The notes under the pieces were generated by a model that was given only the letters and a program-made list of their open reading frames with translations, did not search any database and was not told the DNA's origin. Positions 5,519-32,068 of a stretch of 32,068 nt of DNA are shown piece by piece. Each line of letters opens with the position of its first letter. Position 1 is the first letter of the stretch. The stretch is from Omnitrophica WOR_2 bacterium RIFCSPHIGHO2_02_FULL_67_20 (GTDB taxonomy: Bacteria > Omnitrophota > Gorgyraeia > Aquiviventales > Aquiviventaceae): assembly GCA_001805695.1 (NCBI GenBank), contig MHGT01000007.1, positions 19,001-51,068 on the forward strand, given 5' to 3'. The position numbers and the translations under genes were made by a program.

Positions 5519-5583
5519 GGTTCGGGGTTCGGGGTTCGGGGTTCGGAGCCATTTCCCCGAACCCTGATCCCTGATCCCTGAAC
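5519..5583. repeat. Inverted heptamer arrays (GGTTCGG x4 / CCCTGA[AT] x4)
   Basis: ggttcgg repeated four times, short spacer, then cccgaac cctgatc cctgatc cctgaac. Confidence 0.9.
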
Positions 5584-26316: not shown

Positions 26317-26323
26317 AAGGAAA

Positions 26324-26351
26324 GGTGCCAGCTACCGCGGTGCCTGGCACC
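26324..26351. repeat. GC-rich hairpin (REP-like) at the core/accessory boundary
   Basis: GGTGCCAG ... CTGGCACC perfect 8-bp arms; no U-tract on the + strand. Confidence 0.55.
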
Positions 26352-26390
26352 GGGCTGAAGAAGATAAACGGCTGTGGCGAATAAGACCTC

Positions 26391-26419
26391 TTGCCAAGTG
26401 ATAACAGATATGTTATCAT
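26391..26419 (+). promoter_or_regulatory. Sigma70 promoter with overlapping palindromic operator
   Basis: TTGCCA, 17 bp, TATCAT; TGATAACA-gata-TGTTATCA at 26399-26418. Confidence 0.75.
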
Positions 26420-26437
26420 TCTATCGGAGTCAGATCA

Positions 26438-26570
26438 GTGCTGGAAGTCCTGTACTACCCTGAAGGGAGCCGCGTGGCTGGTTCACAGCGTTGAGAAGAA
26501 GAGCGCGAAAACGCCAAGGGATGATCTTGAGCTCGCAAGAAGGAGGCTAAAGGAGGTGACGGCTCGATGA
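26438..26570 (+). pseudogene. Internally deleted RelE/HigB (Gp49-like) toxin
   Basis: N-terminal MLEVLYYPEG joined out of frame to WLVHSVEKKSAKTPRDDLELARRRLKEVTAR*; stop overlaps the antitoxin ATG. Confidence 0.8.
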
Positions 26571-26869
26571 GAGGCTTCGACAAGCACTTGCATGAACTAC
26601 TGGAAGCGCACCCGGAAGCGGCATTGGAGCACGCCAAGCTGTTCGCCGAGCTTCCGCTGCCGACGCAGCTGGCCATCATGCGCCGCCGAAGGAAGCTGTC
26701 TCAACGCGCCTTGGCAAGAAAGCTGAGGGTGCGTCAGCCTCATGTGGCTCGGACCGAAAGCGTCCGTCACGACCCACGCATCTCCTCGGTTGTCCGGGCC
26801 GCTAAAGCGGTTCGCTGCCATGTTCTGCTCGTACCGGATGAAGAGCTAAAACGGATCGCGGTGGCGTAA
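26567..26869 (+). CDS. XRE/HTH antitoxin (HigA-like)
   Basis: RRRRKLSQRALARKL.VRQPHVAR.E; AAGGAGGT RBS; follows the toxin remnant. Confidence 0.88.
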   Translation: MRGFDKHLHELLEAHPEAALEHAKLFAELPLPTQLAIMRRRRKLSQRALARKLRVRQPHVARTESVRHDPRISSVVRAAKAVRCHVLLVPDEELKRIAVA

Positions 26870-26885
26870 CAGTCAGGCGTTATTC

Positions 26886-26918
26886 ACGGCCCGTCGGATG
26901 ACCGGCGGGCCGTTTTTG
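26886..26918 (+). terminator. Intrinsic terminator
   Basis: ACGGCCCGTCGG-atga-CCGGCGGGCCGT followed by TTTT. Confidence 0.8.
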
Positions 26919-27133
26919 TGTCCGTGAGAAGCAGGTAGGAGTAAAATAAACTGGTTACTTGTGCCCGGCGCAAGATGGCGCTGAAGCTGCTGAAGGAACT
27001 GAATGGGTATGAATAAGTGTTTCAGCGCGAGCAGGAAATGGTAATGTGGCATCGGAAGTTCCCTGGAATTCCTTGATCATTCCTAAGGTGGTGCCGGATA
27101 AGCAGTGGTCCGTGACGACCCGAGAGCAGTCTG

Positions 27134-27757
27134 ATGAGCAACCAAAGAGCCAATAGCGGAGAGCATGATGCTTGGAGAGTGCTCTTGCCGGTCATCATTG
27201 GTGGAGTGCTCGCAACAGTTGGCGGCATCGTAAGCCAGTATTGTGCGTCGCAGTTTCAATTCTCGACTGAAGCTCGCATCGAGAAGATTCAGGAACAGCG
27301 CCAGGTCTTTGCGCGGCTCATGGGGCGGAAGTTTGCCACCAAGCAACTGCATGTCTCTCGTTACGAGGCGCTCGTCTTTTCTGATTATCACGAGGCGCGT
27401 TGGAAGCGCGCTGGCTCGCCGAACGATTCTCTCGACCTGCAAGAGGCACAGCGCTGGATGCACCGTAGCGAGGATCTTGTTTTCGAGATCGTAAGGAACA
27501 ACCAAATCCTCTTTGAAGACATCGGAGTCGCCCGTGCGCTGTTCCCCAATACGCCGCGCCTTCGCGAATTGGTGGATCGGATTTACAGCTTCAAGGCCCT
27601 GAAAATGTCACAACCTCCAGATGATGCTTCGTTGGAGGAGTTGGTCCAGTGGAAGGACGAGTCTGTTCGGCAGCTACAGTCGGTGGTTGATCGCGAATAC
27701 GGAGAACCAATCGATGAGCTTCTGGTCTACCTCTCGCAGCAGCTTCCGATGGATTGA
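27134..27757 (+). CDS. Hypothetical protein with one N-terminal TM helix
   Basis: 207-aa ORF with hydrophobic VLLPVIIGGVLATVGGIVS followed by a helical soluble region; family not recognised. Confidence 0.75.
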   Translation: MSNQRANSGEHDAWRVLLPVIIGGVLATVGGIVSQYCASQFQFSTEARIEKIQEQRQVFARLMGRKFATKQLHVSRYEALVFSDYHEARWKRAGSPNDSLDLQEAQRWMHRSEDLVFEIVRNNQILFEDIGVARALFPNTPRLRELVDRIYSFKALKMSQPPDDASLEELVQWKDESVRQLQSVVDREYGEPIDELLVYLSQQLPMD

Positions 27758-27842
27758 GTTCGGTGGCGGAGCTCTCGAAAGATTTGCCTAACCGAGGTAT
27801 ACACCCGGAACGGAATTCCGGTGACACAATACTATTTCCGAA

Positions 27843-27878
27843 ATGAATAAGCCTCTCGCGGTCGTTACGTACGGATGT
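27843..27878 (+). pseudogene. miaB: miaB-like 5' fragment 1 (MNKPLAVVTYGC)
   Basis: ATG AAT AAG CCT CTC GCG GTC GTT ACG TAC GGA TGT, then unrelated sequence to TAA 27920; same Met-to-TYG spacing as the other fragments. Confidence 0.6.
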
Positions 27879-27921
27879 TCCCTCGACTTGCTCTGCGGCC
27901 GCTTCGCGGCCGTCAAATAAA

Positions 27922-28086
27922 ATGTGGATGAGGGGTCCGGTTGTTCCCTCGTCGCGGATCTCGGCCGTCGGCCTCGACCGCTCCTCAGTTTGGGAGGAAC
28001 ACCTTAGTAATATGTGGATGTGGGGTCCGGTTGTTGCCTCGTCGGAGATCTCCGCCTTCGGCGTCGACTCCTCCTCGGCATCAACC
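27922..28086. repeat. Two 65-bp direct repeats (period 90) folding into covarying hairpins
   Basis: 27922-27986 versus 28012-28076: 56/65 identical by my count, with 6 of the 9 differences forming three compensatory pairs. Confidence 0.85.
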
Positions 28087-28150
28087 ATAGGTCTGGAGTG
28101 AGGATGGTCCTCAGATGAGTAAGAGCATTTTTCTCCAGACCTATGGTTGA
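28081..28150. repeat. Perfect 18-bp inverted repeat
   Basis: TCAACCATAGGTCTGGAG (28081-98) / CTCCAGACCTATGGTTGA (28133-50). Confidence 0.95.
28115..28150 (+). pseudogene. miaB: miaB-like 5' fragment 2 (MSKSIFLQTYG*)
   Basis: Aligns without gaps to MTKSIHLITYGC; GAGGA RBS at 28100-04; TGA at the Cys position. Confidence 0.75.
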
Positions 28151-28294
28151 CCATATGTGTCTAAAAGGGGGATTCCTGATAGGGAGATTTGGTGGAGGAG
28201 ACCAAGAAGGCTTGGTAGCGCTTCCTTAGTGCTTCAGACGGTGGCTGAGGGGTTGCAGGTGGCGCTGGCCTCGACGTAACCAGGGAGCCGTAAA

Positions 28295-28675
28295 ATGGTG
28301 GTCAACGAGGCGTTCGGCTGGTTGTGGATTGTGCTGGGTTTCGCTTCAGGAACGCTCCTGGGGCTGAAGTTCCAGAGCGAAAGCTGGCTGGGAGGCTACG
28401 GTTCTCACAGACGGCGACTGATTCGCCTGGGCCACATTTCCTTCCTGGGACTTGGATTTTTGAACATCCTGTTCGCACATAGTCTTCCGCAACTTCGCCT
28501 GAGCCAGGCATGGTTATCGCTGGCTTCGTGGAGTTTGATGCTCGGAGGTGTGACCATGCCAGTGTGCTGTGGCTTGATGGCATGGCGGAAGAATCTGCAA
28601 CCAATTTTCGCCATCCCAGTCGTTGCCCTTCTCATCGGTGCGTTCCTGGTGCTGATCGGTATGGTGCAGCCATGA
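28295..28675 (+). CDS. Hypothetical 4-TM membrane protein
   Basis: Four hydrophobic segments, LGGYGS.RRRLIRLGH motif, GGAG RBS, ATGA coupling to the next gene. Confidence 0.85.
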   Translation: MVVNEAFGWLWIVLGFASGTLLGLKFQSESWLGGYGSHRRRLIRLGHISFLGLGFLNILFAHSLPQLRLSQAWLSLASWSLMLGGVTMPVCCGLMAWRKNLQPIFAIPVVALLIGAFLVLIGMVQP

Positions 28676-30063
28676 AAGTCGGCTTCATCGCCATGAGTGG
28701 TGTGCGAGCGTACAACGAGGAACTCACGCGAATTGGGCTGACGCTTCCTGGTTTTGTCGAACGCAGCCAGGTCATTGCTTCATTGCCGAGCCTTTCACTT
28801 CTGACATTGGCGGCGATGACTCCACCGCCAATCGAGGTTGAGTATCGTGAGATCAAAGATTTGCGAAACACACCACCCCTTCCTACCGATTACGATCTGG
28901 TCGCCATCTCGTCCTTCTCTGCCCAAATCTACGAAGCCTACCAAGTCGCCGATGAGTATCGCAGACAGGGAATCCCTGTGGTTCTTGGCGGGCTTCATGT
29001 CAGCGTATTACCTGAAGAAGCGAAAACACATTGTACAAGTGTGGTAGTTGGCGAAGGTGAAATATCATGGGGGAAGGTTGTTGCCGATTTCGTTGCAGGG
29101 AAGCTCCAAGACTATTACACCCCTGCTGGGGAGTCGTACAACTTGGCAGACGCTCCGATTCCCCGTTACGAATTGCTAGACATCGAGCAATACAACCGGC
29201 TGACAGTCCAAACCAGTAGAGGCTGTCCTCACCGCTGCGATTTCTGCGCTAGTTCCATTCTGTTGACCCCCAAGTACAAGGTCAAACCTGTTGAACAGGT
29301 CATCGCCGAGATTCGAAGGATCAAGGCGATCTGGAAGCATCCATTCATCGAGTTCGCTGACGACAACAGCTTTGTAATTCGAGAGTATTACAAACGCCTG
29401 CTGCGTGCGCTCAAAGATGAAGGGCTTCGTTGGTTTACGGAAGCAGACATCTCCGTTGCCGAGGATGAGGGGTTGCTGCATCTGATGCGTGAAAGCGGCT
29501 GTCGGCAGGTGCTCATCGGCTTGGAAAGTCCCACACCGCAGGGCTTGGATGGCGTCGAGCAGCGGCGAAACTGGAAACTGAAGAAACTGCCGGACTACGA
29601 GTCAGCGATTCGTACCATTCAAGGGCATGGGATCACTGTGGATGGATGCTTCATCTTGGGACTGGATGGAGATGGTGAAGACATCTTTGATCGCGTCTAC
29701 GAGTTTGTCGAGAATACAGGATTGTATGAAGTGCAACTGACCGTACTGACGCCATTTCCTGGCACGCCGCTCTATCACCGCCTGAGACAGGAAGGGCGTT
29801 TACTCGAAGATCGAGCCTGGCACAAATGCACGCTCTTTGATGTGAATTACGTGCCCAAGCAGATGTCGGTTGAAAGGTTGGAACGTGGATTGGTGGAGCT
29901 ATCAAGAAGGATTTACGATAGTGCGTTTATTCGTGATCGAAGGAGACGCTTTTTCAAGACGCTGCGGAGAAGTGGAGTGGAGTGGTTGCAAAAAATGGAG
30001 GAGGGATGGGGCGATGAGTATCGGGACGATCAAGAAGCTGTTTGTGATCGCCGCGCTGTATGA
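28672..30063 (+). CDS. B12-binding domain radical SAM protein
   Basis: PSLSLLTLAAMTP, VVLGGLH, VVGEGE, QTSRGCPHRCDFC (CxxxCxxC), FADDN, IGLES, FILGLDGD, LTPFPGTPL. Confidence 0.95.
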   Translation: MKVGFIAMSGVRAYNEELTRIGLTLPGFVERSQVIASLPSLSLLTLAAMTPPPIEVEYREIKDLRNTPPLPTDYDLVAISSFSAQIYEAYQVADEYRRQGIPVVLGGLHVSVLPEEAKTHCTSVVVGEGEISWGKVVADFVAGKLQDYYTPAGESYNLADAPIPRYELLDIEQYNRLTVQTSRGCPHRCDFCASSILLTPKYKVKPVEQVIAEIRRIKAIWKHPFIEFADDNSFVIREYYKRLLRALKDEGLRWFTEADISVAEDEGLLHLMRESGCRQVLIGLESPTPQGLDGVEQRRNWKLKKLPDYESAIRTIQGHGITVDGCFILGLDGDGEDIFDRVYEFVENTGLYEVQLTVLTPFPGTPLYHRLRQEGRLLEDRAWHKCTLFDVNYVPKQMSVERLERGLVELSRRIYDSAFIRDRRRRFFKTLRRSGVEWLQKMEEGWGDEYRDDQEAVCDRRAV

Positions 30064-30394
30064 TTTTGTTCTGGGTGTAGTCTTTTTGGTGGCTTGGAAG
30101 CAGGTCTACAACTATTTCGGGGTGACGCTCCCGAACCACGATGGCTACGTGCAATTTGGGGCGGCACTGGTGGCAATCTTCGGGGTTGGGTTTTGGCTTG
30201 TGGCGCAGAACCCTGAGCGCAACCGTGACATCATCAAAATGGGTGTCCTGTTGAAAATCGCATATTCGGGCGTAGTGCTTGGACACCACTTCTTCGGGAT
30301 GGTTCCAGGCGTGTGGGTTCCGTTTGCCTGGTGCGATCTTGTTTTTCTAGCGTTATTCGTAGCGGCACTGCGTGCCCTGCCATCAAGGGCGTAG
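30014..30394 (+). CDS. Hypothetical 4-TM membrane protein
   Basis: LF.IAALYD..LG, P.RNRDII.MG...K, W.DL.F..LF; 50-nt overlap with the radical SAM gene. Confidence 0.82.
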   Translation: MSIGTIKKLFVIAALYDFVLGVVFLVAWKQVYNYFGVTLPNHDGYVQFGAALVAIFGVGFWLVAQNPERNRDIIKMGVLLKIAYSGVVLGHHFFGMVPGVWVPFAWCDLVFLALFVAALRALPSRA

Positions 30395-30443
30395 GATAGC
30401 AGAGACTTCTTGCGTGACATAATTGCCCGCTGATCATATGAAT

Positions 30444-30650
30444 ATGACGAAATCCATACATTTAATCACTTACGGCTGTCAGATGAATGAAAGAGATTCC
30501 GAGGAGGTGCTCGGGATGCTGACGGCGCAGGGCTACGAGATCGCCGGGCAGCCGGAAGACGCGGACGTCATCCTCCTGAACACCTGCTCGGTACGAGCCC
30601 ATGCCGAGGAGCGGGCGTTTGGGAAGCTTTCGGGTAGAGAATATTGTTGA
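30444..30650 (+). pseudogene. miaB: miaB 5' fragment 3 (truncated UPF0004 domain, about 62 MiaB-like residues)
   Basis: TYGCQMNERDSE, ADVILLNTCSVR..AEERAFGKL, then SGREYC*; no radical SAM domain follows. Confidence 0.93.
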
Positions 30651-30682
30651 CATACAATCCATTTTCGTAGAATATTGACAGT
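30638..30682 (+). promoter_or_regulatory. Candidate promoter of the AAA ATPase gene
   Basis: AT-rich; TTGACA (30647-52) and TAGAAT (30668-73, 15-bp spacing is suboptimal); AGAATATTG repeated twice; no RBS, so possibly near-leaderless. Confidence 0.45.
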
Positions 30683-31867
30683 ATGGAATACATCACTAGA
30701 CTGCTGGAACAGAAAATCCGACGGGCCCTCCATCGCAATAGAAGCATCCTGCTCTTCGGGGCCCGGCAGACCGGCAAGACCACGCTGATCAGCCGCTTTC
30801 ACGCGGATCTGGTCATCACCCTCGTGAGGCCGGACATCCGTCAGCGGTATGAAAAGTCACCACAGCTACTGGCCGGTGAGGTGGAGGCGCTCGCCCCCAC
30901 AGCCGCGAACACACGTCCGCTGGTCGTTGTCGATGAAGTGCAAAAAGTGCCAACGTTGTTGGATGTGGTGCAGGACCTCATTGACCGGGGCCGCGCCAAT
31001 TTTGTGCTGACGGGGTCCAGCGCTCGAAAACTTCGCCGCGGCGCCGTCGTCAATCTCCTGCCGGGGCGCGTGGCCACGTTCAGGTTAGATCCGTTCAGTT
31101 TGCGGGAAGTGCCCGCACAGGACGTGCATGAGCGCCTGCTGTACGGGTCGTTGCCCGGCATGCTGGCGGTGCCGGATCGTGCAGATCGAGAAACCGATTT
31201 GGAATCGTATGTGACGACGTATCTGGAAGAAGAGGTGCGGGCAGAGGCGCTTGTGCGGAATGTGGGCGATTTTGCCAGGTTTCTTGAGCTGGCCGCATCC
31301 GAATCCGGCAACATCGTCAACTTGAGAAAATTGTCTCAGGAGATCGGCGTGTCCCATACGACGATCGGGGCCTACTACCAAATTCTCGAAGACTGCCTGA
31401 TCGCCGAGCGGATTGAGCCCGTGACCCACAGCAAGACGAGGAAGAAACTGACCAAATCCGAAAAATACCTGTTCTTTGATTTGGGGGTCCGGCGTCTGGC
31501 AGCCCGAGAAGGCACGAAACTGCCGCGCGATACCTTCGGGCGGCTGTTTGAGCAATTCGTTGGTCTGGAACTGGTTCGGTGCGCCCATGCTGCGCACCGA
31601 ACCCTCGCCATCCGCTTTTGGCGTGATCCGGACGGCCCGGAAGTGGATTGGGTCATCGACGATGAGGGGGCCTATGCCCCCGTGGAAGTGAAATGGACGG
31701 ACCATCCTCGATCCGGCGACATCCGCCATCTGGAAGTGTTCCTCGACGAATATCCCTCGGCCAGGGCCGGGTACATCGTGTGTCACGTGCCGCGTAAAAC
31801 CAAGCTGAGCCGCCGCGTCGTCGCGCTGCCCTGGCAAGCCATTGACGAGCTGATCCCTGCGTCATGA
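30683..31867 (+). CDS. AAA_14 / DUF4143 ATP-binding protein with C-terminal nuclease-like motif
   Basis: GARQTGKTT, VVVDEVQK, LTGSSARKL, NLLPGR, YGSLP, KYLFFDLGV, EVDWV...VEVK. Confidence 0.93.
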   Translation: MEYITRLLEQKIRRALHRNRSILLFGARQTGKTTLISRFHADLVITLVRPDIRQRYEKSPQLLAGEVEALAPTAANTRPLVVVDEVQKVPTLLDVVQDLIDRGRANFVLTGSSARKLRRGAVVNLLPGRVATFRLDPFSLREVPAQDVHERLLYGSLPGMLAVPDRADRETDLESYVTTYLEEEVRAEALVRNVGDFARFLELAASESGNIVNLRKLSQEIGVSHTTIGAYYQILEDCLIAERIEPVTHSKTRKKLTKSEKYLFFDLGVRRLAAREGTKLPRDTFGRLFEQFVGLELVRCAHAAHRTLAIRFWRDPDGPEVDWVIDDEGAYAPVEVKWTDHPRSGDIRHLEVFLDEYPSARAGYIVCHVPRKTKLSRRVVALPWQAIDELIPAS

Positions 31868-31899
31868 CCCGCGCGATCTTTCTTCAAACCTATGGGTGA
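31864..31899 (+). pseudogene. miaB: miaB-like 5' fragment 4 (MTRAIFLQTYG*)
   Basis: ATGA overlap with the ATPase stop; IFLQTYG identical to fragment 2 with only synonymous changes; TGA at the Cys position. Confidence 0.78.
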
Positions 31900-32068
31900 C
31901 CATAGTGGTGCAATACCTGGACTCCCCGCACTATCCAGACAGGCTGTTGCGGAGGACGCCAACCAAGTGTTCGAGGCGCTGGCCGATGGGTTCCGCCTTG
32001 TGCTGGCAGGAATAGAGTTGAAGTGATCATGGTAGTGACCCGCTCACTGCAGATGCTCACGGCAGTCG

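Follow-up and report, generated by a model that had tools for sequence, protein, structure and literature searches.

Close to the right end of the window (the whole stretch of 32,068 nucleotides of Omnitrophica DNA that was analysed), a short coding stretch at 31900-32026 lies behind a palindromic junction, and a similar stretch lies behind a second such junction. This raises the question of what a conserved piece of coding sequence is doing at junctions of this kind. The original prediction regarded it as the end of a cassette, and as either the orphaned C-terminal tail of a recombinase whose gene overlaps attP or a small unannotated peptide gene. The comparisons given below make it very probable (about 90%) that a boundary module of approximately 165 nt, arranged in head-to-tail repeats 5' of miaB within one family of Candidatus Omnitrophota (tiny bacteria of groundwater), has 31900-32026 as its cassette-side half. 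The end of the window is also the end of its contig (C7), and the genome bin (G000) comprises 845 kb in 42 contigs. The G+C content is 51-62% over positions 26317-31000, as compared to 63-71% in the remaining window. The features of the locus are collected in Table 1.

Table 1. Positions of the features discussed; window coordinates unless another contig or locus is named.
Feature	Position	Strand	Remarks
Cassette A cargo	28295..30394	+	three genes
126-aa membrane protein, cassette A	28295-28675	+	
B12-binding radical SAM enzyme, cassette A	ATG 28672 to 30063	+	overlaps preceding stop (ATGA 28672-28675)
Second small membrane protein, cassette A	~30014-30394	+	start inferred
Third miaB-like start, distal end of cassette A	30438..30626	+	low G+C; fused to miaB up to codon ~62
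AAA_14/DUF4143 ATPase	30683..31867	+	Pfam; between miaB fragment and miaB-start copy no. 3
miaB-start copy no. 1 (site 1)	28115..28150	+	M S K S I F L Q T Y G, stop TGA; low G+C
Micro-ORF, site 1 (divergent)	28157..28279	+	40 codons, GTG start
miaB-start copy no. 3 (site 2)	31864..31899	+	ATG + 10 codons (M T R A I F L Q T Y G)
Recombination core, site 2	31885..31925	.	imperfect palindrome CTATGG-GTGA-CCATAG, centre TG (31897-31898)
Micro-ORF, site 2	31892..32026	+	44 codons; ATG is that within TAT-GGG (T-ATG-G)
18-codon constrained block (peptide of the original prediction)	31958..32011	+	A N Q V F E A L A D G F R L V L A G
First cargo gene start, site 2 cassette	32029..32068	+	M V V T R S L ..., 2 nt after micro-ORF stop
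GIY-YIG gene loci	L004 7478-7771 (-); L007 3236-3583; G346 C14; L029		
Candidate dif	G000 contig C19 35405-35423		outside window
G/C-rich palindromic repeat copies	window 5519-5583; C36 473-547; C7 15659-15733		

The two peptides were found where they had been placed, VLQTVAEGLQVALAST and a stop at 28229-28279 (site 1) and VFEALADGFRLVLAGIELK and a stop at 31967-32026 (site 2). Both lie about 70-125 nt 3' of the motif CCTATGGNTGACCATA, which occurs twice in the window against an expectation of 0.03. The similarity reported for the pair was reproduced, with five of 14 residues identical when counted from the translations and 28 of 42 bases identical at the DNA level. The local DNA score of the pair is 22, as compared to 15.5 ± 2.2 for dinucleotide shuffles, 31 of 2000 of which reach 22; among random pairs of pieces from the window the same score is reached by 192 of 2000. 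In the frame originally proposed the pair scores 32, and other pairs of frames from the same stretches give 34, 32, and 30. Taken by itself the two-site pair would seem to be weak evidence, marginally above chance. The significance of the likeness comes instead from relatives found by means of a profile: one built from eight other copies matched site 2 with E = 2e-42 and site 1 with E = 6.5e-12 (nhmmer; 1.4e-12 was also obtained for site 1). The profile matches both sites, in agreement with the proposal that the two junctions are of one element type. Chance likeness was ruled out once these relatives had been found. The opposite outcome, no signal against shuffles and a motif absent from all other junctions, was not observed, since many other miaB-adjacent junctions have the motif.

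The nature of the junctions becomes clear from another contig of the same bin, C36. It opens with 130 nt that correspond to positions 31769-31898 of the window with one mismatch, and it then reads TG-CCAAATGAAT, i.e., an intact miaB (T-Y-G-C-Q-M-N), where the window at the equivalent point reads TG-ACCATAG. The comparison of C7 with C36 shows that the 'palindromic junctions' are N-terminal codons of MiaB joined to other DNA after TG. At both sites the join falls at the TG of the Cys-12 codon and creates a TGA stop. miaB-start copy no. 3 closes with this junction-made stop, and its ATG overlaps the stop of the AAA_14/DUF4143 gene upstream.

The module is made up of four parts. In the first, a ribosome-binding site precedes an ATG and a further 10-11 codons, which reproduce the N-terminus of MiaB. 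The second is a core palindrome, CTAYGG-NTGA-CCATAG, in which the foreign DNA is joined after the TG of the Cys-12 codon to give the TGA. It is followed by a variable linker, and finally by 18-20 protein-conserved codons with a fixed stop. The last three parts constitute a micro-ORF of about 40 codons, and the peptide that first drew attention is its tail. The left arm of the module consists of MiaB codons, and the conserved arm on the cassette side is 27 nt long and runs from ACCATAGT to GAATACCTGGACTT in the consensus of 22 copies; the arms of the core palindrome are symmetrical at a mean of 7.5 of 14 positions. Homology between modules stops approximately 118-123 nt past the TG, which is at the stop of the micro-ORF, and beyond this point the cargo differs. 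What had been taken for a conserved cassette end is indeed one, specifically the 5' end of every cassette; the recombinase tail is the part of that proposal that has not stood.

At site 2 the micro-ORF is read in the +1 frame relative to the miaB-start copy. The earlier remark that neither peptide has an ATG after the junction is literally correct, but it is misleading, as an ATG inside the site 2 junction (31892) opens the ORF. In the divergent copy at site 1, indels put the micro-ORF out of frame with the core ATG; this copy retains G-I-P and the C-terminal block ending in LVLQTVAEGLQVALAST. The tail closest to it is that of the copy in locus L033, which ends in VVQALAEGLQVALAST.

A locus holds at most five modules, all on one strand (the + strand of the oriented loci), and their spacing is 0.7-3.7 kb as measured in the window, L007, and L008. 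They form co-directional arrays of short cassettes with locus-specific cargo. The array is followed by miaB in six loci, either directly after the last module or within 1.3 kb (G288, G310, L025, L033, and C36 of G000), and also at the end of L007. miaA was seen behind miaB in G288, L025, and L033, and miaB was not found in the examined flanks of L006, L008, L030, and L032. The last miaB-start copy is fused to intact miaB in C36, G288, G310, L033, and L007. Insertion is into the 5' coding end, and the element supplies a new in-frame 5' end, i.e., an ATG and 10-11 MiaB-like codons.

An inverted repeat 5' of the miaB start was considered as a general feature of the module and was rejected, since the best agreement among 17 other cores is 8-11 of 18 positions; the 18-nt repeat is perfect at site 1, and 18/18 and 14/18 positions agree before the real miaB in G288 and L007. 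Partial duplicates of the 5' part of miaB were also observed inside the arrays. The one in the window has 62 codons, that of G310 (L023 9247-9340) has 31. The window fragment is 92% identical to the miaB of C36 over 159 nt, and the promoter region of the gene behind it cuts it off at 30626. Each duplicate is cut off by the next gene, at differing points, which suggests extra rearrangements beyond the exchange at TG.

A word-based protein search gave a single protein of 41 aa that is 73% identical. When a profile made from four copies was run with HMMER against 1.84 billion proteins of any length, 22 matches were obtained. Twenty of these are clusters of small proteins of 25-105 aa; the remaining two are long repeat proteins and were discounted as false. 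The small proteins P0010, P0012, and P0025 run directly from M-K-K..T-Y-G-C into the peptide, and P0023 enters it from the third frame. The second of the original alternatives, a small unannotated ORF, is upheld.

Back-translated scans extended the family to DNA records. Of 263 candidate stretches in metagenomes nine were confirmed, giving eight loci, and of 66 candidates in genomes ten were confirmed, giving nine loci, five of them in records labelled Candidatus Omnitrophota and four in Planctomycetales or Planctomycetia. The exact core pattern occurs in only two of 401 genomes of the phylum, G000 and G288. The latter provides a third junction, where the same micro-ORF is followed by different cargo (a methyltransferase). 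The pattern was too strict, since the profile later matched five of the 401 genomes, namely four of the five searched in the window's own family and one in another family of the class. A search for modules with nhmmer gave 33 matches from 18 sources, of which 27 have a readable core, five do not, and one is a plain miaB fragment.

The peptide itself gave no match above any cut-off in Pfam (E up to 10), NCBIfam, or PADLOC. Among ten of the small protein matches the sole Pfam row is a weak one to DUF4873 in P0007 (14.7 bits versus a cut-off of 25). A profile search of the PDB returned one chance-level row and nothing significant, and the best score in the ESM Atlas was 0.81, below the threshold for a lead. 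A possible likeness to the N-terminus of HicA toxins was supported by none of the tools. Derivation of the peptide from MiaB was tried with hhalign, and is unsupported at probabilities of 0.21% and 0.14%.

The breakpoint lies immediately after the TG in three comparisons of empty and occupied sites. The first is that of C7 and C36 within one genome bin. In the second, Logan contigs from three runs in two studies join position 26345 of the window to 31891 and skip 5545 nt. This joint holds 31 other letters, which are an ATG and nine codons in frame with TAT-GGG, and it has 30 letters on its shorter side, in contigs rather than reads. In the third, L007 and L032 are near-identical over about 125 nt up to GGGTG, after which L007 continues into miaB while L032 continues into the ACCATAG arm. 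Strain variants in the public runs leave the window sequence immediately past a terminator-like hairpin behind an alpha/beta-hydrolase gene (26327-26353) and rejoin it at 31891, so that of the strains occurring together some have the entire 5.5-kb island and others lack it. In the four runs examined, site 2 was not found in exactly the form of C7, with a C at 31868.

Comparison of individual copies indicates which parts stay together. The miaB-start copy of site 1 is also found in L011, where 44 nt are 97.7% identical and both flanks are unrelated. Copies L007b and L008c have cargo and micro-ORF tail in common behind differing miaB-start copies. The micro-ORF travels with the downstream cargo. 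The miaB-start copy belongs to the upstream cassette, and it keeps miaB whole after insertion. Two pairs of copies are homologous only from +65 to +75 onward, so exchange also takes place within the conserved block and not only at the TG. Since no recombinase was found, the term 'mobile cassette' rests on comparative anatomy and should be read as a putative assignment.

The conserved block shows a clear coding signal. Among 31 distinct copies the mean pairwise difference over 18 codons is 0.287, 0.237, and 0.474 for the three codon phases, a contrast attained by 19 of 20000 permutations. In 11 copies pN/pS is 0.34 in the frame originally proposed and higher in all others (1.10 and 1.95 in the two remaining forward frames; 0.93, 0.48, and 2.20 on the reverse strand). 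The frame is open through to the conserved stop in 25 of 27 modules. An excess of third-position changes, a fixed stop and an open frame are what is looked for in a small protein-coding ORF, and all three were found across the copies. The pattern of variation argues that the last 18-20 codons are under protein-level constraint. Over the first 12 codons conservation is even across the three phases (0.25/0.26/0.21), a pattern that speaks for a DNA site and not for constraint on coding, and codons 13-21 are variable in all phases.

When it comes to the start codon the picture is less uniform. At the core position, the 27 modules have ATG (7), TTG (4), ACG (15), or TCG (1), so that a canonical start is present in 11 copies and absent in 16. 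Internal ATG or GTG starts are present in nearly all copies, without a consistent Shine-Dalgarno sequence, and a conserved start codon with a ribosome-binding site was not found across the 27 copies. The copy in L011 has an in-frame TGA where site 1 is frameshifted, and the tail is frameshifted in two further copies. Many copies could therefore make only a shorter product from an internal start, or none. Programmed +1 frameshifting at GGN-TGA was considered and rejected because N may be any of the four bases. AlphaFold2, supplied with an alignment of 24 rows, gave a single helix covering residues 16-43 with a pLDDT of 91-93 over residues 21-40, and the tail of the micro-ORF is predicted to form an amphipathic, acidic helix.

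The properties of module and micro-ORF may be combined into one explanation, to which we would give an even chance. Cassettes would enter at the TG of miaB codon 12, and the distal miaB-start copy of the cassette would restore miaB. The abandoned miaB start would then drive an ORF of 11 codons, and its ribosomes would stop at the junction TGA, restart at the overlapping start codon (ATG-G-N-TGA) or at an internal one, and be passed on to the cargo gene, often a few bases past the micro-ORF stop. The helix might have an additional role. The component of this explanation that assigns the micro-ORF the function of a leader, handing ribosomes from the miaB start to the cargo, is put forward tentatively, at somewhat less than even odds. 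As in translation-coupling leader ORFs, the micro-ORF overlaps the stop of the preceding mini-ORF and, in some of the copies, its own stop is 0-5 nt from the cargo start; unlike in such leaders, the amino acids are conserved but the start codon is not, and the distance to the cargo is variable. With the cargo start called automatically, as that of the next ORF having at least 60 codons, its distance from the micro-ORF stop is 0-5 nt in four of 15 copies and at least 28 nt in eight, the latter being difficult to reconcile with a leader. By our own reading, the cargo of site 1 begins 15 nt past the stop. A pure hand-over role would also leave the amino-acid conservation unexplained. In class 1 integrons ORF-11 in attI1 is a short ORF at the insertion site that aids translation of the cassettes.

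The block could alternatively function as DNA, either as an accessory binding site or as a homology patch for shuffling, with no present protein function. Its coding appearance would then be inherited from an ancestral piece of a gene, for instance a duplicated 5' region of miaB. The exchange points of two pairs lie in or at the edge of the block, and L031 and L008c have the block in common and not the sequence after it. The frequent lack of a start, the broken copies and the miaB 5' fragments of 62 and 31 codons inside the arrays would also fit, and hhalign places DANQVFEAL-ADGFR on the MiaB segment DSEEVLGMLTAQGYE with 36% identity. At a probability of 0.14% and E = 0.4 the latter match is, however, without statistical support. 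Three-base periodicity among diverged copies is not expected for a DNA site, and both this and the stop position kept in 25 of 27 copies speak against an explanation in which the block is read as DNA only; we consider it unlikely.

A third possibility is that the micro-protein acts in trans as an accessory factor of recombination, controlling directionality or excision, with one gene per cassette beside the attachment site. The micro-ORF adjoins the crossover core in every copy, it is constrained at the protein level, and no other conserved protein accompanies the cassettes; the single acidic amphipathic helix, if correctly predicted, could dock on a partner. These points are weakened by the start codon missing in 16 of the 27 copies, by the fact that no recombinase partner is known, and by the lack of similarity in Pfam, NCBIfam, PADLOC, and the PDB. 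The directionality factors that we know of are longer than 40 residues, which also counts against such a role. It is accordingly rated below the DNA element, as rather improbable.

A structured RNA leader, such as a riboswitch or an attenuator before the cargo genes, would account for the conserved 5' position just upstream of genes, but the variation tracks codon phase, Rfam gives no match in the window at the gathering threshold, and RNAalifold on 17 copies finds eight pairs with no compensatory changes at -4.78 kcal/mol, with only a short core hairpin on the top strand, all of which makes it very improbable. Least credible of all is the orphaned C-terminal tail of an attP-spanning recombinase gene, which was suggested by the position next to a recombination core and the lack of an ATG past the junction: judged by length and sequence, no recombinase-tail-like match was found among 1.84 billion proteins, the profile check for recombinase C-termini gave 20 true matches that are all 25-105 aa long, Pfam found no recombinase domain in the ten small matches, no recombinase gene was found in the scanned loci, and in those copies that were inspected by eye a TGA, lying on the ATGA of the miaB-like start, ends the reading frame some 10 codons upstream.

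The arrays do not encode the enzyme that moves the cassettes. The ORFs of the Pfam-scanned loci contain neither a PF00589 nor a PF00239 domain. At the genome level PF00239 has no match in G000 (73% complete), G288 (93%), or G310 (92%), and matches occur in G346 and in G252, a genome without the micro-ORF. PF00589 has no match in G000, and two matches each in G288 and G310, one XerD-like and one XerC-like. These proteins are best described as XerD/XerC (336.7, 292.8, 327.9, and 329.2 bits), and they are far below the cut-offs for integron integrases. The pattern of a candidate dif occurs once per genome in five genomes of the family, each time flanked by the same letters, and comparison by eye showed no likeness between it and the module core. 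Among DNA enzymes just one is found repeatedly next to the arrays, a GIY-YIG protein of 97-115 aa, seen at four loci. In these its gene was seen immediately upstream of miaB or of a miaB-start copy.

Two known kinds of system come closest, integron cassette arrays and those islands by which a target gene is given a new 5' end. In integrons cassettes are organised by attI and attC sites and the integrase IntI, and attC clusters that have no integrase are known as CALINs. The miaB arrays are similar in that they are head to tail and co-directional, mostly with one to three genes per cassette; their repeated boundary modules, of about 60-165 nt, have conserved ends and a variable middle, and the cargo, of a kind typical of integrons, includes toxin-antitoxin parts, methyltransferases, small unknown proteins and defence candidates. 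They differ in having no integron integrase, two array-bearing genomes having one XerC-like and one XerD-like protein instead. In integrons the crossover lies in GTTRRRY, in an attC hairpin that has R''/L''/L'/R' boxes; the miaB core is a TG within a gene, and no GTTRRRY was seen by eye in its consensus, CTAYGG-NTG joined to ACCATAGT. Furthermore the miaB module contains a copy of the start of its target gene and the conserved micro-ORF.

SXT inserts in the 5' end of prfC and supplies a new 5' end. Islands specific for dusA likewise insert in the 5' end of dusA and supply a new one, and a mobile element in the MiaB-like gene rimO of Polaromonas is cited in the same source (PMC4482086). The miaB cassettes share with the dusA and prfC islands a target that is the 5' coding end of a conserved gene for tRNA modification or translation, which is kept whole. 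The dusA and prfC elements, large islands or prophages, encode at one end an integrase of their own, while the miaB units are 0.7-3.7 kb, lack an integrase and are piled up in arrays. The miaB system thus lacks the integrase that belongs both to integrons and to 5'-replacing islands, and it adds a copy of the target start in every boundary as well as the micro-ORF.

Elements that depend on Xer include IMEX and the pdif modules of Acinetobacter plasmids. These are also small, recombinase-less modules bounded by short palindromic sites, and XerC and XerD are the sole classical recombinases found in G288 and G310. Unlike in pdif modules, whose boundary site resembles the host dif (XerC arm, 6 nt, XerD arm), the core of the miaB module does not resemble the candidate dif of the family. 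The core is similar to a site for a large serine recombinase in being an imperfect palindrome with a non-palindromic central TG and a breakpoint directly after it, but G000, G288, and G310 have no PF00239 protein.

It is possible, though we hold it to be less likely than the leader function, that one lineage of Omnitrophota possesses an integron-like form of gene capture of new design in which the micro-protein is a functional part. Such a system would comprise integrase-less cassettes entering at one phosphodiester bond in miaB codon 12, a spare miaB start that heals the gene, a conserved micro-gene of 40 codons at the entry end, and a mover outside the classical tyrosine and serine integrases found beside such arrays. 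Candidates for the mover would be host XerCD acting on a non-dif site, the small GIY-YIG nuclease, or another protein. In a search of full-text literature on miaB insertion sites and Omnitrophota integrons, no report of miaB-linked cassette arrays was found. If correct, this would be a second, independent design of chromosomal gene-cassette arrays, in which the start of a gene of an essential pathway is targeted instead of attI, repair of the target is built in, and the cargo is expressed from the target's own start signals. The bacteria of the phylum Omnitrophota are uncultured, very small and possibly dependent on a host; to our knowledge their mobile elements have hardly been described, and the arrays would offer a handle on gene flow among them. 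The compact module of about 165 nt and the helix of 20 residues are directly testable in a surrogate host. For annotation, it would mean that repeated 11-codon 'miaB starts' and the micro-ORF are not pseudogenes or noise.

The AAA_14/DUF4143 ATPase matches the PADLOC family of defence candidates PDC-S01 (E = 1.3e-69). The radical SAM enzyme of cassette A falls in no named subfamily; the best NCBIfam match is HpnJ at 96.9 bits versus a cut-off of 577.6. The first cargo gene behind site 2 is truncated by the end of the contig.

Some further structures were observed in and around the arrays. A second type of junction, at 27843-28150, has a mini-ORF of 25 codons (M N K P L A V V T Y G C S L D L L C G R..), in which a miaB-like start is joined after TG to TTCCCTCGAC. 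Behind it come two tandem repeats of 90 nt (27918-28076, 86% alike) and then the perfect 18-nt inverted repeat (28081-28098 and 28133-28150), the loop of which contains the ribosome site and the ATG of miaB-start copy no. 1. The same type of junction occurs in G288 and G310, and in G288 a GIY-YIG gene takes the place of the repeats. A third type of cassette entry is seen at 26975-27016, where a micro-ORF of 13 codons (M A L K L L K E L N G Y E) lies behind GGCGCAAGATGGC. In G288 and L033 it follows a miaB-like start, TG, and (A/G)CCGTATGT; the start is lost in L005, and the preceding miaB-like start is absent in the window. Finally, a G/C-rich palindromic repeat, with runs of GGGTTCA or GGGATCA units facing AACCCCG units, is present in several places (Table 1), and its copy in C36 sits within the coding region of the intact miaB.
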